Assembly (NCBI GenBank): GCA_000004985.1
Contig: GG738897.1
Source of the DNA: Naegleria gruberi
Taxonomy: Eukaryota
Strand: one strand, 5' to 3'
Length of the DNA stretch: 64,000 nt
Shown here: positions 11,796 through 54,080 of the stretch, in pieces
How positions within the stretch are numbered: position 1 is the first letter of the stretch
How the letters are laid out: each line of letters begins with the position of its first letter
Translations under genes and position numbers: made by a program
The notes under the pieces: generated by a model
Told to the model about the DNA's origin: nothing
The model's database searches: none
The model's input: only the letters and a program-made list of their open reading frames with translations

Positions 11796-11879
11796 TCCGA
11801 TGAGACGGAATCGAACCGCCGACCACAGGATAACAGGTACAACTACAGTCCCATGCTCTACCAGCTGAGCTATCATCGG
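11796..11879 (-). tRNA. tRNA-Tyr (anticodon GTA) with ~11-nt intron 3' of the anticodon
   Basis: The minus strand reads CCGATGA-TA-GCTC-AGCTGGTA-GAGC-A-TGGGA-CTGTAG-[ttgtacctgtt]-A-TCCTG-TGGTC-GGCGG-TTCGATT-CCGTC-TCATCGG-A. It has a 7-bp acceptor stem, a canonical D-arm (TAGCTCAGCTGGTAGAGC), a TΨC loop GGTTCGATTCC and a GTA anticodon with the intron one nt after it, as is typical for eukaryotic tRNA-Tyr. Confidence 0.8.
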
Positions 11880-20788: not shown

Positions 20789-22447
20789 TTATTGATGTTC
20801 TTCTTCGTTATGAGCAACAACATTAAGACCTCTTCTCAAATCAAAGTTGAGCAAATCAGAAACATTATCAACAGCTGAAGTTGGATCATGCTTGTGTGAC
20901 ATAAAGTGACCTTGTAATTCAGCACAAGTAAAACGTCTAATTTCCTTATGTTCTGCGAAAATCTTAGCACAGAATAAATCAGCACAATCGTATTCACGAG
21001 GATAAAAGTTGAGGAACATTTCTCTAGTTTGAATTTCATCAGCAAAGTCAATCAAATATTTTACATCAATTCTGCCAGGCCTAATTAAGGCATCTGGTAA
21101 TCTGTCAATATGATTGGTGGTCATGAACAAAATTCTTCCTTCTTGAGCTACAACGCCATCAATACAATTCAAAAGTCCACCCAGTGTTACGTTTGATCCA
21201 GTTCCATGAGTGGAAAGCTCAGAAACTGAATTATCATCACTTGCTTCAGGTTGGGATGGATGTGGTGGTCTAGTTTGTTTTCGTTCCATCTTAATTGGAG
21301 CAGAAAAACAAGCATCAATATCTTCCAACAGTATTATAGAGTTGAATGGTGTATTCAATAAGAGACTGTTCAAATTATCATCATTGAGATTCTTATTACT
21401 AATATTAATGCAACAAATATTCTTATCCAAGGCACCTGCCAATGCAGTTACTGTACTTGTTTTACCTGTACCAGGTGGTCCCTATTTTGATAATTCAATT
21501 CAAAATTATAAATATTATTAAATATTATCATGATGTTAATAATACTAATACAATATAAAAAATATACTTACATAGAGAAGATAACCTCTTCTGAATGGAA
21601 TACCATGATCGTTATACCACTTTTCAAGTCCAATAAAATTCTTAGCATCCATCAACAACTTTTCGAAAATATTCGATTGTAATTTAACAGTACTAGGTGG
21701 ACGTTTCAATTTTGAAATTCTTGGCTCCCAAAAATCACAATACGAATCTGGAAGATAAATCAATGTTTTACCATGTTTAGATTCCAAATATTTCTGTTGA
21801 CAATCGATAATAAATTCCTTCAAAAAGTTTGGACTTGTTGCCAAACAACTAATTTCAATTTGTTCACTTGGAGAATTTGGTGATGATCCCAAAGATGCAC
21901 CTGATGATAAATTTCTTTCATATGAAATCTTGATAGTTTTTCCTTTAAATTTCAAATAATGAATACCAGGTGATGGAATAAATTTGATTGGAACTGAATG
22001 TTTATCCTTTTCAGAAGGATTATGTTTAAAACTAGAGAAATCAAAATGAGTTTTGGATGCTAAAATAGCCAAATGATTCGAATCTTGACTATAACTATCC
22101 TCAGCCAACCAATACATGAACCAATGATATGCTTCATCATTATTATTAATTTGCAACTTGCTCACAAAATTCTTTTGAAACAAGTAATTAATGGAACTGT
22201 ACCAAAATGTACCAAGTCCCAAACTTCCCAAAAACAAATACAAATGTCCAATATTAATATTCTTTGCAAGGCTGAGAAATTTCTCCCAGAGTGATGAAAG
22301 TGTTCCCGATGATCCAACTCCAACAGCAGCAGCAACAACACTTGCTCCGATTAATCCTGTCGTTGTTGATGGAGTGTTTGTTGTTTGCACGTTGTTTCCG
22401 AGAGTTGGTGATTGAACGAGCGTGGTGCTTGTTAGATTTGTATTCAT
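20789..22447 (-). CDS. BCS1: Mitochondrial chaperone BCS1 (AAA+ ATPase); exons 22447..21572 and 21481..20789, 90-nt intron
   Basis: The track start at 22528 is a TTG; the first ATG is at 22445-22447 (MNTNLTS…). The N-terminus has a TM region plus the BCS1_N domain. Exon 1 ends …HGIPFRRGYLLY|gtaagt. Exon 2 opens with Walker A GPPGTGKTSTV. Walker B is ILLLEDIDA. The ending TNHIDRLDPALIRPGRID… is typical of BCS1. Confidence 0.85.
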
Positions 22448-22541
22448 TTTTTTTAAACTTTTAAAGTTTTCGTAAAATTGATTGAATTTGAAAGAAGCCA
22501 AAAAGGCAACAGTGTTAAAAAATATCAATTATTAAGAGAGT

Positions 22542-23297
22542 TTATTGGATAATCCACTTGGGTTTTCCAATGGAATCGTTAAGGCCATAGATGGGAATGA
22601 TCTGTTGAAAATCTGTCTTGTCATCTCTAACCAATTGCATAATTTCAGGTGTGTTTGGAATTACATAATGAGACCAATAGTCAATTGTCTTTTTCTGTTT
22701 GGTATTCTTATCTTTGAGGTTATTTCCAAGAATAGACCATCCATTACTGGCCTCAATTTCCATACTTCTTGGCACAATCACATTATTATCCATTAATTGA
22801 AATAACTCATCTCTTAATTGCTCTCCATATGGTTGACTAGTTCCAGAATAATCACAACCAGAGAAACAAACATGTAATTTGATAGATCTACATTGTGGAG
22901 CTTCATTTAGATAGGGAGCTAACAATTTGGCTAAGGAATTGGCATTAACAAAGGCCTTCTGTATGGTTGGTCTTACTGGACCAGACGAAAGTAAACCGAA
23001 AGTTCCATCATGAGCATAAATGTGAAGAGAACTGTGTTGATCTTTCAATTCTTTAGTATTTACAAGTAATGGTTGAAATTGCTTTCGGAATTGTTCCTTC
23101 ATGAAATCTACAACCTCATCATCGACTGTTGTTTTATTCTTGTGGTATCGTCCTCTGATTTCTAATGTGCAAACTTTCTTATAGTTTCCATTCTTATATT
23201 TTGTGGTTTTTACACGATGGCTCGATAGGATCAGCTCGTTATTGAGTGCTTTAGAATTGGTGCAAGTGCCATTGTTGGTGAGGATGAGTAGTTGCAT
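22542..23297 (-). CDS. Hypothetical protein (251 aa)
   Basis: ATG at 23295-23297 with a complete ORF. I recognised no domain. It sits only ~90 bp from the genes on either side on the same strand (see findings). Confidence 0.45.
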   Translation of the reverse strand: MQLLILTNNGTCTNSKALNNELILSSHRVKTTKYKNGNYKKVCTLEIRGRYHKNKTTVDDEVVDFMKEQFRKQFQPLLVNTKELKDQHSSLHIYAHDGTFGLLSSGPVRPTIQKAFVNANSLAKLLAPYLNEAPQCRSIKLHVCFSGCDYSGTSQPYGEQLRDELFQLMDNNVIVPRSMEIEASNGWSILGNNLKDKNTKQKKTIDYWSHYVIPNTPEIMQLVRDDKTDFQQIIPIYGLNDSIGKPKWIIQ

Positions 23298-23386
23298 TTC
23301 TTTTTAAATTTTGTTTCTAATATTTTCAATTTTGAAATTGAAATTGTTTTTCATATTGAAATTGATATTTATTTCATGTTAGAAAA

Positions 23387-34100: not shown

Positions 34101-35462
34101 TTAATGTTGCGTATGAATTACAATGTCAAGAATTAGTCTGTTATTTTCACTGGAATAATCCGATGCCTTCAAGAGGTGAGCAAACATTTTGGAAGACAAA
34201 CCTCCTCCATAATCACAAATACAAAATATTCCTTTAGGTTGCAGAACAACTTTGACCATATTCTTGTAAAAGTCTGATTTTCTATACTGAGGATAAAGTC
34301 CCTTATTAAATTCACTGAATGGCATCAATGTTTCTAGAGATAGTTCAGTATTATCAAATGGATTACTACCATAATAACTGGAACCATCAAGATAAATCTT
34401 CTCTGGATTTTCTTCGTATCTATGTAGGAAGAAATCTCTTGTAAATTGTTGTTCAAATACTTTTTCATCTTTGTGATGTCTTATAGCCTTCTTTTTTTTG
34501 TCTTCTTTTGTTGCAACAAAATCAAAGGTTTTAGCTCCAAAAAAATAGTATCTGAGCTTTCCTTCGAATCCTACCTTGGACTGATAAAGTACACTGTTGC
34601 TTCCAGAGAAGATATTGCTGATATTTGAGAATAGAACACCAAAAGGTTGATTGTAAGTGTGTGTGGCATCAGAAGTTAATTGATTTGAAGAGTTACTTCC
34701 TCCGACAGCAACTGTACCATCTTTGAGGAGAGCTAGCACATGAAAATCTCCACATTCAAGTTTTGTAACTGGTTTTTTTAAATCTTGAATTAGTGTTGGC
34801 CATTGGAAATAACCATCAACATGTGTTTGACCTCCTGAAAGCCAATTTTGACCAGTAAAATGTAAGAGTGTATCATTAATTACACAACAACTAAATGAAT
34901 AACAACATCCAATATGATTAATCACGTAAGGAAATCCGACATTTGGCATTTCTCTTCTTGGTTCAAACATTAACTCAATGGTGTTGCAAGAATAATCATT
35001 GGTTTTATCGTGTGTCATACGAAAGTATCCATTATGACCTCTTCCATAAATAAAACTTTCACCAGATATCTTGTCTCTCACAAGGAAAAGCACAGCTTCA
35101 GTATAACTGGAAATTTGCAATACTTCCAAATCTTCATTATCATCGATAATCAATCTTTTTGGTGTATCACTACCATTCACAATTTCAAATAATTTTCCAT
35201 CTCCACTAACAATATATAAACAATCCATGTTGGAGTAAGCATGCACCAGTCTAATATTATCAATTTTTTCATCACTATTTAATTTAATTCTTATCGGAGC
35301 TTTACTTGAATGATTACCATATACCGATTGAAATACAATTTCTGTTCCGCAATTAATAGATGGTAAATATGGCAAATCAGTCGAGTCATAACCACAAGGA
35401 TTATTAGAACCAACGAGAGGGAGTGTATAGTGAGAAGACATTTTTTTTGCTTTGATCATCAT
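34101..35462 (-). CDS. RCC1-like repeat (β-propeller) protein
   Basis: 453-aa ORF starting MMIKAKKM…. RCC1-type blades include GDFHVLALLKDGTVAVGGSNSSNQL, YGRGHNGYF and SGDGKLFEIVNG. Confidence 0.55.
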   Translation of the reverse strand: MMIKAKKMSSHYTLPLVGSNNPCGYDSTDLPYLPSINCGTEIVFQSVYGNHSSKAPIRIKLNSDEKIDNIRLVHAYSNMDCLYIVSGDGKLFEIVNGSDTPKRLIIDDNEDLEVLQISSYTEAVLFLVRDKISGESFIYGRGHNGYFRMTHDKTNDYSCNTIELMFEPRREMPNVGFPYVINHIGCCYSFSCCVINDTLLHFTGQNWLSGGQTHVDGYFQWPTLIQDLKKPVTKLECGDFHVLALLKDGTVAVGGSNSSNQLTSDATHTYNQPFGVLFSNISNIFSGSNSVLYQSKVGFEGKLRYYFFGAKTFDFVATKEDKKKKAIRHHKDEKVFEQQFTRDFFLHRYEENPEKIYLDGSSYYGSNPFDNTELSLETLMPFSEFNKGLYPQYRKSDFYKNMVKVVLQPKGIFCICDYGGGLSSKMFAHLLKASDYSSENNRLILDIVIHTQH

Positions 35463-39593: not shown

Positions 39594-41543
39594 TTAATGG
39601 AAATAATTGAAAATGCACTTGATGGATTCCTCTCTTAGCATTCTTCTTAAATTGTATTCCTTACTCAATTCCTCATTTGCATGTTCCTCACTTTCGTCTT
39701 TAGATTCCAATAATTGAAGTGAATCTTTTCCAAAATATTCCAAGTCTTCTTTTCTGTTTAATTCCAACAGTTCTGATTCACTCAAAGTTTGATAATCAAT
39801 TTCATTTTCTTTCCATTCATTTGTTTGAGAAATATTCGAATGTGTATGATTGAAGAATAATGAGCCATGCCCATACCAATTCTTTAAATAGAGTTTCTCT
39901 GAGAGCGTTCGTTCCTCTCCATAAAGTTCTGAATGAACTCTAATGGAAACCTTTAATAATTCATCCTCTAGGGAACCTTCCAATATTTTGCTTTCGTCCA
40001 AAGTTTCAATTTCTGAATCGTCAATAAAATCTTCATCCTTTTTTGCACCATCTTTCTCCTCAGCGATATTAGATTCCTTATTGATAATAATAAATTCATC
40101 ATTCTCCTCATCTGAATTTTCATTTTCTGTATATTCTAATAGGAATTCCATTTCATTATCAGAAACTTCCTCATCGTCCACATCACTAGGGACATCTGAT
40201 TCAGGTCTTGATCTTTTATTCTCAATGACATAATAAAATTTAGAATTATCCAACGCATCCATAATTTCTATATCCGAAACTTTCAATTCTTCATCCTCTT
40301 CCAAGTCTCCTCCAATTTCTGCATTACTTCTTAAAAAATGCTCATAATCCATTGGGTGTTCAGTGTATGGAATAGGAACATCCTTATTGTCTCCATACTT
40401 GTTCTCCACAACTATTTTCAATAAATTTCGAAGATATTCCTGTAAGAGAAAGAGTGCATTTTCAATCATAATTGGTTCAAAATAAATGATTCCTCTTTTT
40501 CTAAATAGATTCTTGATACCATCTCGAATAGAATGATACATAAAAGTGTCATCTAAATGAACGCAAATTTCAAACTTTCGAAATTCACTGCATTGATAAG
40601 TTTCTAATAAAATTGAAGTCTGCTCGTCATTGGAAACTGCCGATTTCTGTACATCATTAATATATGAATCAATTTGTCTTTGATCATTCTTAATTTTATC
40701 ATAGAAAAGTAAGAAATCTTCATCTAATTTCAAATTATGCACTTGTTCATCTGTCAACTTTAAATATTTCTGAACTAGTCCTTTATATTCTTCAGAATAA
40801 ATAGTATCTTGTGAAAGATAGAATTGCTCATCAATTGAACCTTCACAAAGTGGAATACCAAATGGAATTCTCTTGTCAATAATCTCATTTTCATCTTCCA
40901 TTTCAATTGTCTCATCATTTTCTATAATTTCATCTTCTTCTACTGTCGCTTCAACTTCATTCTCTTCATCATCTTCATCTTTGTGAAAATAAATTGGTTT
41001 AACTCCAAAACGAAAATTTCCAGATTTGAATTCTTCTAGATTAGTGGCGTAGGTATCAAAATCTACATGAGATACTTGCTCCCAATCAGTTTCATTTAAA
41101 AATATGGTTGGCTTCCAAGTAGAAAGATCAGTAAATAGATCTGGATGCCTTGTGTGAATAGTTTCGAATTTTCTAATCTTATCAAATATCCCATGCATGT
41201 GTAAATTGGTTTCGTAAATATATTTGGTTGCATCACGAAATATGGAAAGCAGCATGGATGTTAAATCTTTACAGAGGAATAACAATTCGAAACTTTCGTC
41301 CACTTCTAGAAACCTCATAACATGAAACCAACAATCGGAAATTTTAACAAGATCACACGATTTGTTTTTGATATTCGAATGTTGAATAGTTGAGTTGAAA
41401 TCAAATTGTCGTTCAACATTTTCTATTTCTTCATCACAAGATGATTGTGAATCATCCGATTCGTTATCTAAAGTAGCCGAAACAATCAGAAACTTGCTTG
41501 GGCGCAAATATTCACTATTTAGCAGCGGAAGTGTTCTCTTCAT
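39594..41543 (-). CDS. F-box-like protein with extremely acidic (D/E-rich) central and C-terminal regions
   Basis: ATG at 41541-41543. Degenerate F-box CDLVKISDCWFHVMRFLEVDESFELLFLCKDLTSML. Long DEEENEVEATVEEDEIIENDETIEMEDENE and DEEVSDNEMEFLLEYTENENSDEENDEF tracts. Confidence 0.5.
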   Translation of the reverse strand: MKRTLPLLNSEYLRPSKFLIVSATLDNESDDSQSSCDEEIENVERQFDFNSTIQHSNIKNKSCDLVKISDCWFHVMRFLEVDESFELLFLCKDLTSMLLSIFRDATKYIYETNLHMHGIFDKIRKFETIHTRHPDLFTDLSTWKPTIFLNETDWEQVSHVDFDTYATNLEEFKSGNFRFGVKPIYFHKDEDDEENEVEATVEEDEIIENDETIEMEDENEIIDKRIPFGIPLCEGSIDEQFYLSQDTIYSEEYKGLVQKYLKLTDEQVHNLKLDEDFLLFYDKIKNDQRQIDSYINDVQKSAVSNDEQTSILLETYQCSEFRKFEICVHLDDTFMYHSIRDGIKNLFRKRGIIYFEPIMIENALFLLQEYLRNLLKIVVENKYGDNKDVPIPYTEHPMDYEHFLRSNAEIGGDLEEDEELKVSDIEIMDALDNSKFYYVIENKRSRPESDVPSDVDDEEVSDNEMEFLLEYTENENSDEENDEFIIINKESNIAEEKDGAKKDEDFIDDSEIETLDESKILEGSLEDELLKVSIRVHSELYGEERTLSEKLYLKNWYGHGSLFFNHTHSNISQTNEWKENEIDYQTLSESELLELNRKEDLEYFGKDSLQLLESKDESEEHANEELSKEYNLRRMLREESIKCIFNYFH

Positions 41544-41890
41544 TTTTTCTGAAAAAGTAATTGTAAATCTTCCCTATTTTACTGGAAAAACTGAGGTAAA
41601 CAGTGTTTCATACTTTTGTAACTGTTGCATCGTGTTCAATATTGTAAATAAATTTTATGATAAATTAAGGTTGGCAGTTTCCGTAGAGCTCCATTGCCAA
41701 AATATCCACTGCCTCTTTCATATTTGCACAAGATAGGCAAATTTAAAGAAGCGTAATTTGTCAATGATGGTTAAGGATTTGAATTGGTGAATTTCCAAAT
41801 TTCTCCTTAATTATTGGAGAGGGTCTCAAGTTTTGACATTTTTTAAATTAAATATTTTAATTGTTTTAATTCAAAATTATTAATTAAAAA

Positions 41891-43210
41891 ATGCAACCAC
41901 TAGATCATACCCTCTCACTCACAGGCTTTGCAATTTTAATTGTATTATTGGTGATTGTGTGGATTTTGGTGAGAAAAAGGGTTCGGAATTATTGCAATAA
42001 TCATCCAAGTAGAAAGGAATTTAAAGTTTATTTGCCATTTTGTAGTGATGAATTGGCATTAATTATTTCATTTCTTGAAAAATCAGACATCGGAAATCTT
42101 TCTCTTGTTTGTAGAGAGGCTAAACAAGCTACTTATTCAAGTACAGTTTGGAATGAGTTATGTGGAACTGTTTCTCTTCGGAGAGTTGAAGGATTGTTGA
42201 ATTTGGAGAGATATGAAGGGAAAATTAAAAATTTGAAATTAATTACTGATCAAGATGAGTATTTTGATGATGATTTTATTTGTAGGATATTCGAAAGATT
42301 GAATGAAAGGTTTCAAATAAGAAAGATGACTATCGAAGTTTCTACATTGGAATTATTCAAGTTTAATTTATTGAATCATTTGGATTGCTTAGAATGTTTG
42401 GAACATTTGAAAATATTGGATAATTCTACAATTTCTATTTTGTTTAATAATTCTTTGATGCCAATTAGATTACCCAAGAAATTGGAATCTATCAAAGTAA
42501 GAGGATTTAGTAGAGTTGCAAATAGAAGTTATGTGTTTGACACTATTTTTATACAAACAGAAAATATCAAAATTGTAAAATTTGAGAACAATCAAGGTTT
42601 TAATGAAATCAAGTTTCAATCACCAAAGGTTGATTTGAAACACTTGACCTCTATTTCACTCTCTTGGACAAGCAATATTTCAACTGAGTATTTCAATAAT
42701 TTAATGGGGAAGTGTAAAAATCTCAAAAAATTGGATCTATCAGGATCTACTTTTGTGGCAAATAATTTGAATATCCCAACCACTATTGAAGTATTGGACA
42801 TTTCCTCCTGCTTGTTTGATGACACAACTCTAACAATGATAGCGTGCCTACCATATTTGAAATTTGTTAACCTTTCATCAACACTCATACCTTTAGATAT
42901 CTTGATACTTTATTGCCAAGTTGGACGATGTGTTATTTGTCAAATTGGAAGTAAGGAAGAGTTGCAAATTCTAAAATCCAACAAACATATTCGTTTATCA
43001 CGCATTTCTCCTCTAGATTTTGATTCCAAAATCAAAGAAATTAAGAAGTCCACCTCAGTAGAATCCAACATTTGTAAAATGTACTATCAACAAGTATTTA
43101 CCGATCCTATTGAGCCTCCAAAGCTAACTCTAAAACCAACAAAACTCTACAAGGCAAAACTAGTCAAATTTTCAGCCTCCAAAGACATTGAAATTGATAA
43201 TGGAAATTAA
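41891..43210 (+). CDS. F-box / LRR protein with N-terminal TM segment
   Basis: ATG at 41891. The N-terminal hydrophobic segment is LTGFAILIVLLVIVWILV. F-box FCSDELALIISFLEKSDIGNLSLVCREAKQATYSSTVWNEL. LRR-like units follow (LKHLTSISLSWTSNIS, LKKLDLSGSTFV, LKFVNLSST). Confidence 0.6.
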   Translation: MQPLDHTLSLTGFAILIVLLVIVWILVRKRVRNYCNNHPSRKEFKVYLPFCSDELALIISFLEKSDIGNLSLVCREAKQATYSSTVWNELCGTVSLRRVEGLLNLERYEGKIKNLKLITDQDEYFDDDFICRIFERLNERFQIRKMTIEVSTLELFKFNLLNHLDCLECLEHLKILDNSTISILFNNSLMPIRLPKKLESIKVRGFSRVANRSYVFDTIFIQTENIKIVKFENNQGFNEIKFQSPKVDLKHLTSISLSWTSNISTEYFNNLMGKCKNLKKLDLSGSTFVANNLNIPTTIEVLDISSCLFDDTTLTMIACLPYLKFVNLSSTLIPLDILILYCQVGRCVICQIGSKEELQILKSNKHIRLSRISPLDFDSKIKEIKKSTSVESNICKMYYQQVFTDPIEPPKLTLKPTKLYKAKLVKFSASKDIEIDNGN

Positions 43211-43250: not shown

Positions 43251-43369
43251 GGCTACGGCCATATCACGATGAATGCACCTCATCCCGTCCGATTTGAGAA
43301 GTTAAGCATCGTCGAGCCACATCAGTACTGAGGTTGGAGACAACTTGGGAACCTGTGGTGCTGTAGTCT
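43251..43369 (+). rRNA. 5S ribosomal RNA gene (dispersed copy)
   Basis: ggctacggccatatcacgatgaatgcacctcatcccgtccgatttgagaagttaagcatcgtcgagccacatcagtactgaggttggagacaacttgggaacctgtggtgctgtagtct matches the universal 5S blocks: GCCTACGGCCATAC, CCCGTCCGATCTG, GAAGTTAAGC, AGTACT, GGGAGACC, CTGGGAA and GGTGCTGTAGGCT. Length ~119 nt. Confidence 0.8.
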
Positions 43370-43735: not shown

Positions 43736-45212
43736 ATGATATCAAATCTATGCACACAAATAATAGGAATGGAACGTGTTTTTCCAAAGTTTGCAAATGC
43801 AACCAAGTTGCACAAAACTCTCCTTCTCTCCCTTCCACATAAAGTCACTTCATTAACAAGTTCTTTGGCTGTGTTTTCAAAGCACAATGTTAATTTGATA
43901 AAGATTGAATCACGTCCTAATCGATTTGATAAGAAGGTTATTGATTTTGTTGTCAATGTTGATGAAGGAGTGAGTAAGGATATTGTTGATAGAGCCATCA
44001 AGGAAATGGTTCAAGAAAAGATTTGTGATCATGTACAATATTTGGGATTTGAAAATAAGATTCCTTGGTTCCCAACAAAGATTGCAGATATTGACCATTT
44101 CGCAAGAGAATGTCTTGAAGCTGGTGCTGTTTTGCAAGCTGATCATCCAGGTTTCCATGATCAAGGTAAGGAATTGATTTATTGACATTGTTTCTAATGT
44201 TTATCAAATCAATAGAATACAGAGATCGTAGAAAGATGATCGCAGACATTGCTTTGAATTACAAACATGGAAGTCCAATTCCACGTATTGATTACACTGA
44301 AACTGAAAATAAGACTTGGAGTATTATTTACAAGAAATTGACAGCTCTCTATCCTAAATATGCTTGCGAACAATATAACAACTTGTTCCCATTATTTGAA
44401 CAAAACTGTGGTTTCAAGGAAGATAAAATCCCACAATTACAAGATGTCAGTGACTTTTTGTTGAGCTCAACAGGTTTCAGAATTAGACCTGTCTCTGGTT
44501 TGCTCACTTCAAGAGAGTAAGTTTTCAATTTTGAAATTTTTCATCATTTAACCCAAATAGTTTCCTTAATGCTCTTGCTTTTAGAGTTTTCCACAGTACC
44601 CAATATATTAGACATCACAGTAAGCCATACTATACACCAGAACCTGATGTTGTTCACGAAATGCTTGGTCACATGCCATTATTGGCTGATTCTGATTTTG
44701 CTGAATTCTCTCAACAAATTGGTCTTGCATCTCTCGGAGCTTCCGATGAAGAAATTGACAGACTTGTTAGACTCTACTGGTACTGTCTCGAATTTGGTAT
44801 CCTCAAGGAAAACGGTTCCTTGAAGGCTTATGGTGCTGGTTTGTTAAGCTCGTTTGGTGAACTAGAATATGGTTGTTCAGGCATTGATGCAGAAACTGGA
44901 AAGAAACCAGAATATTTACCATTCGTTCCAGAAGATGCTGCTAATAGAGTTTATCCAATCACTCACTACCAACCAATCTATTATGTTGTTGAAAGCTTGG
45001 AATCATGCAAAGATTTAATTAGAAGATACGTCAACAATTCTCTCGATAGACCATTCCAACTCAAATATAATCCATACACAAGTACTGTAGATGTTTTGGA
45101 TTCTCAAGAAAAATTAATAAGCTTGACAAAAACCATTCAAAACAACATGGATCTGTTAAAGTCTTCCCTTTCAAAGATTGGTCGTTCCTATGAAATTAAC
45201 AATAAAAAATAA
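43736..45212 (+). CDS. Biopterin-dependent aromatic amino acid hydroxylase (phenylalanine-4-hydroxylase-like) with N-terminal ACT regulatory domain; exons 43736..44165, 44216..44516, 44561..45212
   Basis: ACT domain: [34 protein letters not shown]. The catalytic domain is collinear with PAH. Examples: [15 protein letters not shown]…DHPGFHDQ|[42 protein letters not shown]…[15 protein letters not shown]|[43 protein letters not shown]…[14 protein letters not shown]. This includes the Fe-binding HxxxxH…E context. Donors are g|gtaagg and ga|gtaagt; acceptors are aatag and aaatag. Confidence 0.85.
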
Positions 45213-47288
45213 AAATTTAGCTATGGAAATTAGTATACTAATTTGAATTAATTAGAGCTTTTGGCAACCAACTATAACTCAGGGTCATACGTGTTAATTT
45301 TGATGTTGTGAATTAGGCAAGCTTAACTTGCCGCCAAAAATCAACGTGTTAAGCTTTGCCGGTTGACTGTGGCCAAAAAAATTTTGGTATTACAACGGTA
45401 TTTAAAAATATTATAAAATATTAAAAAACAAAATGTCCCTACATCCAACATGATGTTGTCTACTTGAACATATTTTTCAATGGATGCTGCTGATGTTGAA
45501 CACATCCTGTCTTCAAGCTATAACATTGTTACATGTACATCTCCCATACAACATCCTAAATGTATTAATGTTGTTGTTGCTCTTGTTATAATAGACTACA
45601 ATATATATTATGAATAATACAACAATAACAGCTATAACAGTACCATAATATATTACATCATCTTTTCAAACAGGCACAACTAATGCTAGGAACATGATGT
45701 GGAGCAAACAACAACAATAGAAGATGTTTCTTGTTGTTCTTGGTTGTGATTTATCCTGTTGTTTGTTGTTCTTCCCGCCAAATATCAGGGAATTACACAT
45801 GTTGAATTCTTGAAACATTCAACGAGGAGGCAATTACATGTCATTTGTATACATATACATGTGCGGATCATATGATGATGGATAACACACATGATAACAT
45901 GCAAATTGTTTACATAACATGTTGTTGATATGTTTTGCACAACTTATTGTGGATGTGTGAAGATTTCAAAATTTGTGGATGTAATCTGACGGTTGGAAAA
46001 TGTGGAATGTTTTCAAGATGGACATTATCTAACGCATTATCATTACCACATTTATTTTTTCTTTGGATGAATAGGAAAATGTTTTTGGAATGTTGTTGAA
46101 TGTGATGAAACTAAACTAATAGTACATTCTATACAACTTTACCATGCATTGAAAACATGCATTTTCTTTTATTCTAATGCACATGCATCAATTCATAGAT
46201 TCAATTTCATTCAACCCAATTAATATCGAATCTACATCATGTACCATTCGATTCTTTCCAAACTTTCGAATAATAGTGTAAATTAAAAGTGCATTCCAAT
46301 ACAACTAGTCAGAATCCAACAAATTAGTTAGTAGCCCATCTATTCGATCTATACTTGCTGTATTAGTATATGCACATTTACAGTAACATTGCAAAACATG
46401 TACATTTGGAGTAATAAGTGGATATAAAGAATTTGTGAATTTCATGGCAAAATAAATTGGAGAAATTCAAAACATAATCACCACAACCAGAAACTGGAAA
46501 ATTCAATTGTATACAGTAACACATTATTATGATTGTTTGCTCAGTCGATATTATTCGAAATCTTTCCAATAATTAAAGAACTTAATGGTTATCCACATAC
46601 ACAACAACAACATGTATTATCGAAACATTCCCAAACACTGACACATTCCAAACAAACACCCATGACCAATAATACTTGTCCACTCAATTCTGAATATTGA
46701 GAATTTCACAACATGAAATTGTCTCTTTTAATCATGTACCAACACTTCATGGTTTTTAAAATTAAAGAAATTGCGAAAAATGTTGAAAAAATCCGCATCA
46801 ACTAAAAAGCCCCTACTTTACCAATTCACTACAATTCATCATGAATCATTACCTTGTTTAGAGTTGACCAAACCTCGTAAAGGAATGAGAACGGAAGAAA
46901 GGTCCACAACGACCAAGAAATTAGTCAAACAGGCAAGACCTCGATCAATACGTGTAGATCCCTCGTTTCGAATAAACAATCTAATAGTTTGTGTTGATTC
47001 ACAGAGTTGACTAAAGTGGCAATTGACTAGAGCAGTGGGTAAAGCTAGTGGTGGTCGCAACAGTTAATAGTTTCATCAGCATTATGTTTATTCCGCCACA
47101 AGAAGAAGTATTTTTCAAAAAAGTGTCTTTACAATAACTATTAAATATATTGCAATTGCTTGGTATTATATTATTTAATATTTCTAAACAAAAAAAACAA
47201 CACTAATCACTGCACATTAGGTAAAGGCAGTAAACAATCGCAATTTTACCATCTAAGTTTCGAATAATTGTCATCATTGGACAATAAG

Positions 47289-49070
47289 ATGATACCCTTC
47301 TCTTCACGACCAACAACACAAACAACAACTCACATAACAACAACAACAACAACATTATCCGATCATCAGCAACATCAGCAACAGCAGCAGAATTATCCAC
47401 TGTTCTACATGTCGCAAAATATCACACCTTCTGATAATTTTCTTTCGTATAATTCCAATAATATTTCAAATATTAATATTGCTAATACTAATCAAACTAT
47501 TGCTAATACTGTTACAGCAACAGCAACAGCAACAGCAACAGTGGACAGTAACTCAAATTCTTCACCAATTCCATGCTATTACATCTTACGAGAGGAATGT
47601 GTTGGAGATTTAGAGGAAGAATTACGAAGAAGAGCAAGAGCTGTGAAAGATGTTGGACTTTCGAATAGTAATCAGTTAAGGAGAAACCTACCGCAGCAAA
47701 ATTCTATAATCAAACCTGTTATTGTTGAGAGACATGGCATCTTACCACTTTCAAATCAGGATTCTAATACTACTTTAGGTAAACTTAAAAATTATACTAA
47801 TTCCAATATAGGAATAATGATTACGACTCAAACAACATCTGAACCACTGAGTAAATCTCCTCATTATCCAATTACTCAACATGACCAGTCCGCCGTGCAA
47901 AAAGTAAATCTCCAATTGAGTAACAATCAGATTTTCCAACAACCAAACCAACAACCTTTCCAAACGCATGTTTCGAATAATACAACAATTACTAATACAA
48001 CTAGTACAACAATAGGCCCATCTCTAACTAATTTCTCACATGTTATTAATAATAATACTAATAGTACTAATACGAATCAACATGTTCTTGGAGGCATGAA
48101 TGTTTCGAATAATTCTAACGGTCAAATGCAACAAACTTCGAATGCACTTTTAGTACATACTACTAGCAGTCCTCAACAAGATGCTATTCTAAATCAAATA
48201 TTTGATGAGGAACAAGATGTGATTAAAAATAGTGAACTTGATGAGCTATTGGCAGTTGGCATGGATGACAATTCATTTCTGCAAAGTCCAACAATTAATA
48301 CCAATAATATTGGAAACATGTTTTATAGTGGAAGTAATGTAGGTGGTGCTGCCTCATCTTCTCCCTTATCACCACCAACTGTTCAAACTAATCTATTCGA
48401 AAGTAAGGTAAAGAAGGAAAAGAAGAGAGGCAAATCAGCAATGATACATGTTGAGATACCACCTCCTCTACTAGCACCCAATCAACCCACTCTTAACTCG
48501 CCCCAAAACAACTCAATTGGTGGAACACCATCCTACTCGACAACCAATAAGAAAGTCGCAAAAACATCAAAAAAGAAGAGAAAGCAATCAGCTGCTAGCT
48601 CCTCATCAATGCCATCAAGTAGCACGAGTACAAACACCAACGATCAACACTTCTTTTTTGGAAGTGGTAGTTCAACAGGTGGTAATTTACATGTTCTTCC
48701 AATGTTTCCTCCAAGCATCATGAATGGTGAAGAGGGAGGAGGACCAGATGAAGAAAGTAATGCACCACCAAGGAGAAAAAGAGGAAGACCACCAACTGTG
48801 TAAGTATTGACATTCAGTTTCTTTTCTAAATATTTTAATTTTTACAAACATGTAATATGAACAATATGCAAACATGTGATATTATTGTTTATAAACAGAC
48901 ATACGTGGAGTTTTGGTATTGGAGAGAACACCTATAATACCTTCACACGTTTCAGTAATCCATTAGAACAGGCAAATACTGTCAATTCGTATAATTCTTC
49001 TTCTTCCTCGAATTCTGATTCTGAATCTTCCAAGAAGAAAAAGAAGGAAAGTAAGAAGAAATCAAAATAA
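47289..49070 (+). CDS. Gln/Asn/Thr-rich low-complexity nuclear protein with C-terminal AT-hook (RRKRGRPPT); probable 2 exons 47289..48799 and 48899..49070
   Basis: The track start at 47268 is a TTG; the first ATG is at 47289 (MIPFSS…). Poly-Q and poly-T tracts and a (acagca)n repeat are present. An AT-hook core GRP is flanked by K/R. ORF 47268..48803 ends at taa overlapping GTAAGT at 48800. The acceptor ataaacag at 48898 joins in frame to HTWSFGIGENTY…SSSSSNSDSESSKKKKKESKKKSK (track ORF 48876..49070). Confidence 0.5.
47511..47545. repeat. (ACAGCA)n hexanucleotide microsatellite inside coding sequence (encodes TATATATAT)
   Basis: acagcaacagcaacagcaacagcaacag, read directly in the sequence. 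Confidence 0.6.
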
Positions 49071-49081
49071 ATAATTATTTA

Positions 49082-50097
49082 TTATTCAATTTGAACTGAA
49101 TCACCCTTCTTTAAGAGAATGTACTCAATAATTGGAGCTGGCATCCAAGGTCTGAAATATTGAATCAAGAAACGTTCAGTATAAGGTACAATAAATAAAA
49201 AGTCTCCATTCTTTCCTTCTACATTGGTAACCATTCTGGAAACACATTCGTCAACTTCCATGAATTGTGATAAATCTCTTTTAACATTGGAGGCTGACTT
49301 GTTTTCAGTTCCAAGAGCATTGAAGTGAATTTGAGTTTTAACAAAGCCAGGACAAACAATTGAAATAGTGACCTTCTTTCCATAAATTCCCTCCTTCAAT
49401 AATTCCAATTTCAAAGCTTCATAAAATCCATGAAGAGCAAATTTGCTACTAGAATAGGCAGTTCTATAACTTGATGAAATAGTTAGAATGATTAGAATCA
49501 TCATAAAACATACCAAACACCTGATAATCCAGCAAGACTTGAAACAACACAAATAGAGCAATGAGATTCTTGCTTTTCTCTCAAATGTTTCATCAAGTAG
49601 AATGTTGGTGTGACACATCCAAAGAAATTAGTCTCCATCAAGCTTCTATGACCATCTAAATTTGTAGCTTGAGCAAACATTTGCACTGCTGATCTTCCAG
49701 CATTCAAATAAATTACATCAATTCTCTCATTTAAATATTTAGCACTCAACTCGATCAAATTTTTACATTCCTCATCAACGGAAACATCTGTCTTGACACA
49801 GAAAATCTCGTGACCCTTTCCACTATATTCCTTCAACATGATTTCCTTCAATTCTTGCAATTTCTCAACATTTCTAGCAGTTATGACAATTTTATTTCTC
49901 TTTCCGATGGTACAATAGTGTCGCAATAATTGTTCTCCAATGCCAGAGCTTGCTCCGGTGATGATAATATGTCTATTGGAGAGGCACTCTTCAGAATTGA
50001 CTCTCTTTCTCTCCTTCTCAAATTCTAAATATCTAAACACATTCAAGCCAATTACTCCAATTAAAAGCAACAAGACTCCCGCCAAATATTCGATCAT
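49082..50097 (-). CDS. Short-chain dehydrogenase/reductase (SDR) with N-terminal membrane anchor (11β-HSD1/DHRS7-like); exons 50097..49514 and 49469..49082, 44-nt intron
   Basis: ATG at 50095-50097 (MIEYLAGVLLLLIGVIGLNVF, TM). It has the cofactor motif TGASSGIG, an NAG motif, and the catalytic Ser within VVSSLAGLSG. Donor tttg|gtatgt and acceptor tcatcaag join as …LSGV|C|YRTAYSSSKFALHGF…, restoring the YxxxK active site. A ctaac branch-like element lies inside the intron. Confidence 0.8.
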
Positions 50098-53039: not shown

Positions 53040-54080
53040 ATGACGACGAATAACCAATCGATGGCAATGTATTCCTCTGCTACTCAGCAACAGGATACAA
53101 ATGGCCAACAACAACAAGATGGTAAAAACGGTGCAAATTATAATACAAACCGATTAAACGCTAGACAACAGATGAATATTGGAGTTTTAAAGAGAAAAGA
53201 TAAATTTATTACGACAATACACTCGACCTTTGATCATGTAGTATTTTACAAGTTTCAAGATGATTCATGGGATAAATTGGAAGTAGAAGGAGCCATGTTT
53301 ATTGTAGAGAGAAACGAACCAAAATTTCCCAAGTATCGTATTGTAGTGATGAATAGAAAGAGTAGTGATGATTTTCGTCAAGATATTACAAAGGATTTAG
53401 AATTGGAAGTCCATCACCCATATGTATTCTATAGAACCAAAGGTCGTATTATCAAGGGAATTTGGTTCTACAAATCTTTGCAATGTATTGAATTTAATGA
53501 CCTCATCGTTTCGTTGAAAGAAAAGGCCTATGGAAAGACGGAACCAGAAAGCAAACAATCAAATACTTTTGTACAACCACCAACTACTTTGCAACCATCT
53601 CCTCTAATTAATTACCATCCAAACCATGCTGATTCAATTTATCATCCATCATCACAATCCCATCAAATTAATCATCATCAAAACGATTCACAACCATCAT
53701 CAGATGCTTCATCTTTACTTAAGAATATGCTAGGAATTGGAGGTGTAACAGGATTACCACCAGTTGAAAATGGTTCCTTTAATCCATCATCTGCAATGGA
53801 CGGAAATAATTATCTAGATGAAGAATCACTTATCAGAGAACACTTTTTCAACTCTAGTGCCAATCAACAAGTTTCTACTGTGGTTGAACCAGAATATTCA
53901 TCTGTGTTATCTCAAGAGTGTGTTCAACAATTCGGAAAGAGGAAGTTTGTCACTAAGGAAATGTTCATCAATCAGCTCATGTTCACACTAGAATCTAACA
54001 AGGACTTTTCCGATGCTTGCTACAATCAATATTGCCAATTTCTAGCTGATGAAAATAAACAATCAGGAAATAGGTGCTAG
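53040..54080 (+). CDS. DCP1: mRNA-decapping enzyme subunit 1 (Dcp1, EVH1/PH-like domain)
   Basis: ATG at 53040. After a Q-rich N-terminus comes the Dcp1 EVH1 core: VVFYKFQDDSWDKLEVEGAMFIVERNEPKFPKYRIVVMNRKSSDDFRQDITKDLELEVHHPYVFYRTKGRIIKGIWFY. This corresponds to the conserved W-x-K-x-x-EG-x-LF…NR…G-IW-FY pattern. A short 3' exon cannot be excluded. Confidence 0.75.
   Translation: MTTNNQSMAMYSSATQQQDTNGQQQQDGKNGANYNTNRLNARQQMNIGVLKRKDKFITTIHSTFDHVVFYKFQDDSWDKLEVEGAMFIVERNEPKFPKYRIVVMNRKSSDDFRQDITKDLELEVHHPYVFYRTKGRIIKGIWFYKSLQCIEFNDLIVSLKEKAYGKTEPESKQSNTFVQPPTTLQPSPLINYHPNHADSIYHPSSQSHQINHHQNDSQPSSDASSLLKNMLGIGGVTGLPPVENGSFNPSSAMDGNNYLDEESLIREHFFNSSANQQVSTVVEPEYSSVLSQECVQQFGKRKFVTKEMFINQLMFTLESNKDFSDACYNQYCQFLADENKQSGNRC

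Follow-up and report, generated by a model that had tools for sequence, protein, structure and literature searches.

An ORF-free island in the Naegleria gruberi genome and a predicted regulatory array at the start of NAEGRDRAFT_81214

The island and its neighbours

The region considered here lies within a 64-kb stretch of the Naegleria gruberi genome, referred to as the window, and consists of the 2,076 bp (45213-47288) between the stop codon of a phenylalanine-hydroxylase gene (PAH; Pfam Biopterin_H), its 5' neighbour, and the start codon at 47289 of NAEGRDRAFT_81214 (EFC39739), at which the NCBI model of the latter gene also begins. The first exon of NAEGRDRAFT_81214 (47289-48799, plus strand), which encodes a protein that is rich in Q, N and T and has RKRGRP as its AT-hook core, is separated by an intron (48800-48898) from the second (48899-49070). 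Protein searches identify the product as an orphan, an exhaustive HMMER search returning its own relative alone. The accession numbering suggests that there is no space for another annotated gene within the island.

No ATG-initiated ORF of at least 100 aa is found in the island, which is the longest stretch of this kind in the window other than the first 2.8 kb, cut by the window edge; all remaining such stretches are at most 1,090 bp long. An earlier note on this sequence was correct in describing a gene-free island of ~2.1 kb, but not in stating that it held no ORF longer than 63 aa: the longest, at 46780-47010 on the plus strand, is 76 aa in length, and has no record as a called gene. The longest open frame in the island, at 92 codons, is of the length expected by chance (78 ± 16 in shuffled sequence), no codon-usage signal is observed (the best 50-codon score is 0.12, compared with 0.24-0.42 for real exons) and none of the ten longest frames matches a Pfam family at E ≤ 1. 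Splice donors of the form GTAAGT or GTAAG are absent from both strands of the island, there being a single GTATGT on the minus strand. Of ten long ORFs, eight are identical to N. gruberi NEG-M proteins, and the island represents non-coding, intergenic DNA of this strain. An intergenic region of 2 kb is roughly twice the average for this genome, a length that is just mildly unusual, and taken alone the island is ordinary. The same note considered it less homopolymeric than other intergenic DNA, a weak distinction given that A/T runs of at least 5 make up 3.8% of the island and 1.5-10.5% of the 14 other ORF-free stretches of the window.

Two AATAAA hexamers are present on the plus strand at 45201-45213, the second overlapping the PAH stop codon (TAA, 45210-45212), and these are likely to represent the poly(A) signal of PAH. 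The poly(A) rules of N. gruberi involve AAUAAA and a median 3' UTR of 39 nt, falling to 22 nt where the signal overlaps the stop codon (PMC11529991). The overlap seen here implies that the PAH 3' UTR should occupy just ~20-40 nt of the island. A short distance downstream is the hairpin GGCAAG-CTTAA-CTTGCC (6-bp stem, 5-nt loop), found at 45316-45332 rather than at the previously reported ~45318-45336, and flanked by two copies of ACGTGTTAA (45289 and 45344). The hairpin exists, but it is not distinctive: perfect 6-bp hairpins are common in the island (12 observed, against 6.3 ± 3.1 in shuffles), and the 188 nt surrounding this one fold no better than shuffled sequence (z = -0.5 and -1.3). No evidence supports a function for it.

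An imperfect hairpin of 106 nt on the minus strand at 46277-46382 (dG -35 to -38 kcal/mol) represents a candidate hairpin RNA, and would be consistent with the island encoding an independent non-coding RNA, whether a minus-strand small-RNA precursor containing this structure or a longer lncRNA. Its stability is high relative to shuffled sequence (z = -4.5 in a 120-nt window; z = -3.2 over 171 nt, with 0 of 200 shuffles as stable) and strand specific (z = +0.8 on the plus strand), and it ranks first of 2,130 windows in a GC-corrected search for outliers, although its residual of -3.7 SD is approximately the chance extreme of that number of windows and the mean folding z of the island is -0.54. 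A minus-strand AATAAA is located ~105 nt downstream of the hairpin (46168-46173), the base skews flip sign near 46.25 kb, as divergent transcription would predict, and the sole hairpin substitution in a relative of 98% identity falls in the terminal loop. Against this, no Rfam family reaches or approaches its curated threshold in the island, the highest score being 25.6 bits (C/D) relative to a cut-off of 50 bits. An RNA gene of either type is decidedly unlikely, and the lncRNA previously put forward finds no support in Rfam, its sole structural support being this minus-strand hairpin, which lies inside the tail of the window-wide distribution. The only Rfam matches to pass in the window are a 5S rRNA and a tRNA-Leu, both outside the island; the 5S rRNA gene is 2 kb upstream of it. 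A snoRNA cluster was also considered and rejected, as the few C-box-like words lack matching D boxes or terminal stems.

The tetranucleotide bias of the island tracks the CDS of NAEGRDRAFT_81214 on the same strand (r = 0.31), unlike the opposite strand (-0.01), with values of -0.10 to 0.18 for other intergenic regions; an excess of A over T continues unbroken from ~46.3 kb through the CDS; and the frame at 46533-46700 is rich in Q, T and N, as is the N-terminus of the AT-hook protein. Such similarities might be expected if NAEGRDRAFT_81214 had a long 5' leader, or a non-coding exon upstream, transcribed from the right half of the island, or if this half were a decayed part of its former N-terminal coding region. 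Against these possibilities are the plus-strand AATAAA hexamers at 46451 and 46971, the 15 upstream ATGs that the final 1.1 kb of the island contains, the lack of a GTAAGT donor and the missing codon-usage signal. Apart from low complexity of the (CAA)n type, neither blastn nor tblastx detects significant similarity of the island to the gene. These origins are very unlikely, and the long 5' UTR or intron suggested previously is unlikely, given the absent donor, the two plus-strand AATAAA hexamers and the upstream ATGs.

Excess and clustering of TTTCGAATA

Four exact copies of the 9-mer TTTCGAATA are found in the island (46264+, 46552-, 46966+ and 47258+). In total there are 18 in the window, in either orientation, compared with the 0.8 expected from dinucleotide shuffles or 1.7 from a third-order Markov model, with all such statistics drawn from 64 kb of the 41-Mb genome. 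The earlier observation of several copies of a palindromic motif is borne out with regard to their number, which is far above chance, but only the TTCGAA core is palindromic. The flanks of the motif are unconserved except for S at -1 and A at +9, giving an extended 11-mer, S-TTTCGAATA-A; no occurrence of TATTCGAATA was found. An unbiased scan of the 9-mers of the window ranks TTTCGAATA first for clustering. Of the 18 copies, 16 are grouped in two eight-copy arrays, at 25719-27697 and 46264-48402, and the probability of eight of the 18 sites falling within 2.2 kb is 1.5e-5 for each of these two clusters. Relative to the window, where the CpG observed/expected ratio (o/e) is 0.42, the island (0.58) and the domain of the second array (0.63) are raised, largely because of TTTCGAATA itself. 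With a G+C of 0.31-0.34, these sequences do not resemble CpG islands, which have a high G+C and a CpG o/e above ~0.6 over the domain.

The array that includes the island copies (array 2) spans about ±1-1.1 kb around the start codon of NAEGRDRAFT_81214, its midpoint (47329) lying within 40 bp of the ATG at 47289. Upstream of this ATG are the copies at 46264-46272 (plus strand; -1025), 46552-46560 (minus strand; -737), 46966-46974 (plus strand; -323), where the 3' extension makes an AATAAA, and 47258-47266 (plus strand; -31). The remaining four are within the CDS, three on the plus strand at 47659-47667 (encoding L-S-N-S), 47971-47979 and 48103-48111 (both V-S-N-N), and one antisense on the minus strand at 48394-48402 (L-F-E-S).

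Array 1, with exact copies at 25719+, 26034-, 26299+, 26585-, 26602+, 27019-, 27258- and 27689-, surrounds a divergent promoter between the ATG at 26298 (minus strand) and that at 26950 (plus strand). Its midpoint, 26704, is within 80 bp of that of the promoter, 26624. Both arrays are therefore centred on start codons; they are equal in size, ~20 kb apart, and each extends into coding exons. The possibility that the island arose by duplication, whether of the downstream gene or of array 1, was rejected, since blastn and tblastx similarity is limited to (CAA)n and the two low-complexity proteins are unrelated to each other.

There is no sequence self-similarity at lags of 141 or 705, which, together with the lack of conservation in the flanks, indicates that the sites are discrete elements rather than a decayed repeat. 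A decayed tandem repeat was accordingly rejected as the source of the arrays, autocorrelation being absent at both lags. The presence of the motif in both orientations argues against a signal acting at the level of RNA. Within coding DNA, the antisense copies occupy three different frames (Y-S-K, I-R-N and F-E), which argues for selection on the DNA rather than on the peptide. An origin as a peptide repeat was likewise rejected, both for this use of three frames and because half of the copies are non-coding. The motif is thus kept in coding DNA in several frames. At four genes, a copy of TTTCGAATA is positioned 1-45 nt 5' of the ATG.

The copies in both arrays fit a lattice of ~141-142 bp, with a joint P of ≈0.002 over the 16 points. 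The eight copies of array 2 take lattice indices 0, 2, 5, 7, 10, 12, 13 and 15 in order of position (R = 0.92, P = 0.008), and array 1 gives P = 0.015 at the predicted period but is not significant alone (P = 0.36). This suggests that the ~141-bp spacing matters. Such regularity is what would be anticipated if a factor of the chromatin or chromosome were loaded in phase on the arrays, for instance at a boundary or insulator, a replication origin, a barrier that phases nucleosomes or a nucleation element of the Polycomb type, with the coincidence with 5' gene ends reflecting open chromatin and not gene control. The disregard of the sites for the borders between coding and non-coding sequence, the equal size of two arrays about 20 kb apart, and the existence in N. 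gruberi of heterochromatic regions marked by H3K27me3 and H3K9me3 (PMC12344493) all agree with this possibility. The evidence for the lattice is modest, however, and 141 bp, being shorter than the nucleosome core, is implausible as a nucleosome repeat length; nor is a periodic nucleosome-linked signal seen in Naegleria (PMC12695648). The single copies close to four start codons also resemble an ordinary promoter element. An architectural role independent of gene control is consequently considered unlikely.

The least probable of the interpretations weighed, and a highly doubtful one, is that the island has no function of its own, being either plain spacer or a mobile-element relic, and that the motif copies arose by chance or as a side effect of mutation or composition. 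Chance cannot account for the motif excess and the double clustering, and in this CpG-depleted window (CpG o/e 0.42) the CpG-containing TTTCGAATA is more common than all of its CpG-free, A/T-richer one-mismatch variants. This reading would fit with the length of the island, at around twice the genome average, and with its divergence from the 98% relative, which is similar to that of the CDS (9 substitutions in 1,051 bp and 8 in 1,511 bp, respectively). The degraded mobile element proposed in the earlier note is not supported: the island has neither terminal inverted nor long terminal repeats, the arms present being (GTT)n/(AAC)n of low complexity, its direct repeats are all at most 18 nt long, no transposase, reverse-transcriptase or integrase remnants are detected using Pfam, and no second copy of the island exists within the window. 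Searches for Naegleria orthologues of the AT-hook protein, of the product of the PAH exon and of the BTB/pentapeptide protein identified only relatives of 95-100% protein identity, in ENA metagenomes, and none of the genes at this locus returned a JGI relative. Two contigs of ~98% DNA identity, L001 and L004, retain the spacing and all 13 of the motif copies that they cover; as approximately one change would be expected among 13 copies, this retention is uninformative on constraint. Another two, L002 and L003, reach just 63 nt beyond the PAH stop codon.

Comparison with known elements

A literature search using the motif string returned only primers, and no Naegleria transcription factor motif or promoter architecture was found defined in the literature searched. 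Several known elements of other eukaryotes share features with TTTCGAATA. The URS2 region of the yeast HO promoter contains ten SCB sites (CACGAAA), and constitutes a homotypic cluster of transcription factor sites. As in that case, many copies of TTTCGAATA occur in both orientations over 1-2 kb around the control region of one gene, and the two motifs have CGAAA in common; by contrast, the TTTCGAATA copies are all exact 9-mers, half of them are in coding exons 3' of the ATG, and they follow the ~141-bp lattice.

Regularly spaced arrays of a single motif, extending over 1-2 kb beside particular protist genes, are also known from Plasmodium falciparum, in which PfSIP2 binds arrays of SPE2 upstream of upsB var genes. 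These arrays have been linked to chromatin state rather than to simple activation. SPE2 is bipartite, subtelomeric and found upstream only, however, whereas the arrays described here straddle a start codon in a gene-dense internal region. The TTCGAA(T) of TTTCGAATA is likewise shared with the B-box of TFIIIC and the 'extra TFIIIC' (ETC) sites, with consensus GGTTCGAANCC, clusters of which are chromatin boundaries in yeasts. Unlike the B-box, all 18 copies read T-TTCGAA-TA, with T in place of the invariant G and A in place of C. The B-box-like word TTCGAATCC occurs twice in the window, at 34563 and 59673, in neither case within an array. Identification of TTTCGAATA as a heat-shock element, which requires nTTCnnGAAn, or as a STAT site, TTCnnnGAA, was rejected on the basis of spacing.

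The CHR element, which is bound by LIN54 of the MuvB/DREAM complex, has the consensus TTYRAA (PMC4974476), and this accommodates the TTCGAA core. The four copies just 5' of start codons are also reminiscent of the location of CHRs near transcription starts. Human LIN54 favours an A-T pair in one of the central positions (PMC4974476), which would make TTCGAA a weaker, lower-affinity variant for the human protein. In contrast to the CHR, a single 6-mer in each promoter, TTTCGAATA occurs in arrays of an 11-mer whose flanking T, TA and A vary no more than its core, and the functions of the genes here (an orphan, a BTB/pentapeptide/RGS protein, an RCC1-like protein and a membrane protein) carry no cell-cycle signal.

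A predicted regulatory array

The excess and clustering of one motif and its location at a gene control region, two of the features by which homotypic binding-site clusters are recognised, are both found here. The interpretation judged to have around an even chance of being correct is that the right-hand ~1 kb of the non-coding island (46.26-47.29 kb) forms the upstream half of a regulatory array centred on the start codon of NAEGRDRAFT_81214. Of the options listed in the earlier note, it is thus the regulatory domain that is favoured. The first few tens of bases of the island would be the 3' end of the PAH transcript. The copies of TTTCGAATA are candidate binding sites for one sequence-specific DNA-binding protein, which may load repeatedly along the promoter and the 5' region of this gene and thereby set the transcription or chromatin state of NAEGRDRAFT_81214; the second array, at the divergent promoter 20 kb away, would act likewise. 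That a protein binds TTTCGAATA, and that the array regulates the gene, are suggested by the number and arrangement of the sites.

For ordinary transcription factors, eight exact copies reaching 1.1 kb into coding exons would be unusual. The left half of the island differs from the right. Between 45400 and 46250 there is no copy of TTTCGAATA, ACATG(T) and TGTTG/CAACA are abundant, and on the plus strand G exceeds C while T is at least as frequent as A. ACATGT shows no periodicity in the island. This half (45.4-46.25 kb), with its local excess of ACATGT, is unaccounted for by a regulatory array.

A more speculative interpretation, and an improbable one, is that S-TTTCGAATA-A represents an undescribed cis-element of Naegleria, in which start-centred arrays on the ~141-bp lattice nucleate or phase a chromatin domain, such as a Polycomb-type silenced or poised state. 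Selection would then maintain exact copies at a subset of genes, even within coding exons. If true, a chromatin array encoded in the DNA sequence itself would exist in a deep-branching eukaryote, and an exact CpG-containing 11-mer at start codons would offer a way to approach how genes are regulated and chromatin is organised in the Heterolobosea. Public RNA-seq, direct-RNA, EM-seq and histone ChIP data exist for NEG-M (PMC11529991, PMC12344493, PMC12695648 and bioRxiv 10.1101/2025.03.17.643675).

An over-represented nonamer in start-centred arrays

What gives this finding its worth is the motif that the earlier note mentioned in passing while describing the ORF-free island upstream of the AT-hook gene. 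The nonamer TTTCGAATA occurs 18 times on the two strands of the 64-kb window, which constitutes 0.15% of the genome, compared with 0.8 copies in dinucleotide shuffles (maximum 3) and 1.7 under a third-order Markov model. CAG/CAA repeats and the splice donor aside, no other 9- or 10-mer in the window is as over-represented, and an unbiased scan of all the 8- to 10-mers in the window also identifies TTTCGAATA as the most clustered word. The motif is hence real and far above expectation, but it is not the palindrome that had been suggested, TATTCGAATA occurring 0 times. Each of the one-mismatch, A/T-richer variants is rarer than TTTCGAATA in the window, CpG is depleted (observed/expected 0.42), and the core TTCGAA (39 copies) outnumbers the next CG-centred palindromic hexamer threefold. 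This CpG depletion stands despite 5mC being sparse (0.28%) and without CpG preference in published N. gruberi methylomes; H3K27me3 and H3K9me3 domains are present (PMC12344493). Alignment of the 18 copies reveals bias at two flanking positions, G or C at -1 (15/18) and A at +9 (12/18), and at no others within ±30 nt. This implies that the motif, S-TTTCGAATA-A, is an asymmetric 11-mer and a discrete element rather than part of a longer repeat. No published description of the TTTCGAATA motif was found in a literature search.

Exact copies of the motif form arrays centred on starts, one at the island and one at another promoter, 20 kb from it. These two arrays hold eight copies each, 16 of the 18 in all; for a single array, the probability of eight out of 18 random sites falling inside 2.2 kb is 1.5e-5. 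Array 2 (46264-48402) lies around ATG 47289 of the AT-hook gene, with four of its copies in the island's right half (at -1025, -737, -323 and -31 from this ATG) and four in exon 1 (at +370, +682, +814 and +1105). Array 1 (25719-27697) straddles a divergent promoter bounded by ATG 26298 (-) and ATG 26950 (+), the latter being the start of a 678-aa membrane protein, and includes an inverted pair, TATTCGAAA-N8-TTTCGAATA, at 26585-26610. The midpoint of array 2 (47329) is 40 bp from ATG 47289, and that of array 1 (26704) is 80 bp from the midpoint of its promoter (26624); assuming around 30 gene starts in 64 kb, we roughly estimate the probability of both midpoints falling this near to starts as 0.006.

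On the minus-strand side of array 1, the S/N-rich ORF at 25792-26298 appears to be exon 1 of a BTB/pentapeptide/RGS gene (23387-26298). This exon, reconstructed as 26298-25800 (-), joins the ORF at 23387-25698 in frame via a 101-nt GTAAGT...AG intron at 25799-25699 (donor 25799-25794, acceptor AG 25700-25699), within which one copy of TTTCGAATA is found. Four ATGs (25684, 26298, 35462 and 47289) each have a single copy of the motif 1-45 nt upstream; the first of them, 25684, was subsequently reinterpreted as the start of exon 2. Around a further divergent promoter, between ATG 41543 (-) and ATG 41891 (+), seven TTCGAA cores are more loosely grouped (39835-42290), of which one is an exact 9-mer and three are one-mismatch variants.

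Probable constraint on the motif, and the spacing of its copies

Sense copies in N-rich coding sequence encode (V/L)-S-N using the rare serine codon TCG, which accounts for 6% of Ser codons overall as against 21% where AAT comes next. Antisense coding copies read Y-S-K, I-R-N, F-E-T and F-E-S, such that all three frames are used. Outside of CDSs, six of the 16 array copies are intergenic, four of these being in the island, and one of the 16 is in the intron at 25699-25799; furthermore, each array holds copies in both orientations. The three antisense frames, the non-coding copies and the presence of both orientations count against an origin of the motif at the level of peptide or RNA and, along with the use of TCG, argue for a constraint on double-stranded DNA. 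As the copies point to such a constraint, a putative sequence-specific DNA-binding protein may recognise them.

In their likely mode of working, both arrays would most resemble homotypic binding-site clusters at promoters. The half-site spacing of heat-shock and STAT sites does not fit the motif, and the regularly spaced SPE2 arrays of Plasmodium represent a conceptual parallel. The TFIIIC B-box shares TTCGAA(T) with the motif, but T and A stand where the B-box has its invariant flanking G and C. The TTYRAA consensus of the LIN54 CHR fits the motif core, TTCGAA being a lower-affinity variant for human LIN54, although the CHR is a single hexamer whereas the Naegleria motif is an 11-mer found in arrays (PMC4974476).

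The positions of the array 2 copies fit a 142-bp lattice (Rayleigh R = 0.92; P = 0.008 after scanning periods of 60-460 bp) with offsets of +4, +9, -4, +4, -21, +7, -3 and +5, at indices 0, 2, 5, 7, 10, 12, 13 and 15, corresponding to a super-period of about 705 bp. Array 1 has its own peak at 139-140 bp (R = 0.75), not significant alone (P = 0.36) but with P = 0.015 at the period predicted from array 2; the joint P for the same period in both arrays is 0.002. No autocorrelation of the sequence is observed at 141 or 705 bp, hence the arrays are not a decayed tandem repeat. This lattice of approximately 141 bp is suggestive and unexplained. A nucleosome core is longer than 141 bp. No periodic nucleosome-linked 6mA signal was seen in a published survey of Naegleria (PMC12695648).

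The island and its flanking genes

The island (45213-47288; 2,076 bp) lacks any ATG ORF of at least 100 aa. No other stretch of the window without such an ORF is longer, bar the first 2.8 kb, which the window edge truncates; the rest reach 1,090 bp at most. The claim that it has no ORF above 63 aa was slightly off, as there is a 76-aa ATG ORF at 46780-47010 (+) and a 92-codon open frame. Open-frame lengths in the island are those of shuffled sequence (78 ± 16 codons), no frame carries a codon-usage signal (maximum 0.12, versus 0.24-0.42 in real exons), none of its ten longest frames matches Pfam at E ≤ 1, and the GTAAGT donor is absent from both its strands. The island was also thought to be less homopolymeric, a weak distinction given that A/T runs of at least 5 make up 3.8% of it, inside the 1.5-10.5% range of other ORF-free stretches. 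No Rfam family came near its gathering score in the island even at permissive thresholds, the sole finds in the window being a dispersed 5S rRNA gene (43251-43369, +; 105 bits), between the F-box and PAH genes, and a tRNA-Leu(TAG) gene (11796-11879, -). The island is real but ordinary: an intergenic region of above-average length upstream of an orphan gene.

Neither the proposed degraded mobile element nor a duplicate of the neighbouring gene is supported, because the island has no long direct or inverted repeats and no notable tandem arrays, and (CAA)n/(TTG)n microsatellites are its only matches elsewhere in the window. An AATAAA at 45208 overlaps the stop codon of PAH, forming a 'dual-use' stop/poly(A) signal (region 45201-45213). 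As the N. gruberi poly(A) signal is AAUAAA, and the median 3'UTR is 39 nt, or 22 nt where the signal overlaps the stop codon (PMC11529991), the PAH 3'UTR should take only the first few tens of bases of the island. The suggested long 5' leader of the AT-hook gene fares poorly, since a plus-strand transcript would have to run past two AATAAA signals (46451 and 46971) and would contain 15 upstream ATGs.

N. gruberi NEG-M proteins at NCBI (326,913-bp scaffold) exactly match eight of ten long ORFs of the window. To its left the island is flanked by the last exon of the phenylalanine-hydroxylase gene, PAH (Pfam Biopterin_H, E = 1e-63), and to its right by NAEGRDRAFT_81214, the AT-hook gene (47289-49070, +), encoding a 560-aa 'predicted protein', EFC39739, the NCBI model of which starts at ATG 47289. 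It comprises exon 1 (47289-48799, +), a GTAAGT intron (48800-48898, +) and exon 2 (48899-49070, +); the protein, in which no Pfam domain was found, is rich in Q/N/T/S and has an AT-hook core, RKRGRP. Apart from its own relative in an ENA metagenome, 98-99% identical, no homologue emerged from a word-indexed search or from an exhaustive HMMER scan against 1.84 billion representatives, and the gene is therefore an orphan. This relative, a Naegleria about 98% identical to NEG-M, is present in ERZ929261 as contigs corresponding to 46238-50061 and 21574-26668. The AT-hook gene differs from it by indels of 3, 9 and 3 nt, all in frame, and by substitutions of which 4/8 are synonymous, and is thus real coding sequence; its intron has a 17-nt deletion in the relative. 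All 13 covered motif copies (13/13) are intact in the relative with unchanged spacing, a comparison that is uninformative on constraint as only about one change would be expected. Accessions run from D2VTY1 at 39594 through D2VTY4, the AT-hook gene, to D2VTY8 at 53040 (UniProt), and EFC39739 is followed by EFC39740 (NCBI); since this numbering runs on, the island would seem to have no slot for an annotated gene.

Minor features of the island

The small hairpin reported earlier is present, at 45316-45332, but amounts to no more than chance expectation; it is flanked by two exact copies of ACGTGTTAA, 55 nt apart (45289-45352). ACATG(T) is locally abundant in the left half of the island (45.4-46.25 kb), and 15 of the 31 copies of ACATGT in the window fall within 45531-48872, a stretch spanning this left half as well as the CDS and intron of the AT-hook gene, with no window-wide excess (31 versus 25 ± 5) and no periodicity of the copies. 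At about 46.25 kb the base skews switch, A>T being continuous from there into the AT-hook CDS, and the tetranucleotide bias of the island tracks that CDS only when the same strand is compared (r = 0.31, versus -0.01 on the opposite strand). These skews and biases could reflect transcription, a shared low-complexity origin or the decay of former coding sequence. At the skew switch, a 106-nt imperfect hairpin (46277-46382) is stable on the minus strand only (dG -35 kcal/mol, z -3.2 to -4.5; plus strand z = +0.8). Among 2,130 windows it is the strongest outlier after GC correction, but no more extreme than so many trials give. The hairpin, which could represent either the precursor of a small RNA or an extreme reached by chance, is a lead, not a finding. 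A minus-strand AATAAA lies about 105 nt downstream of it.
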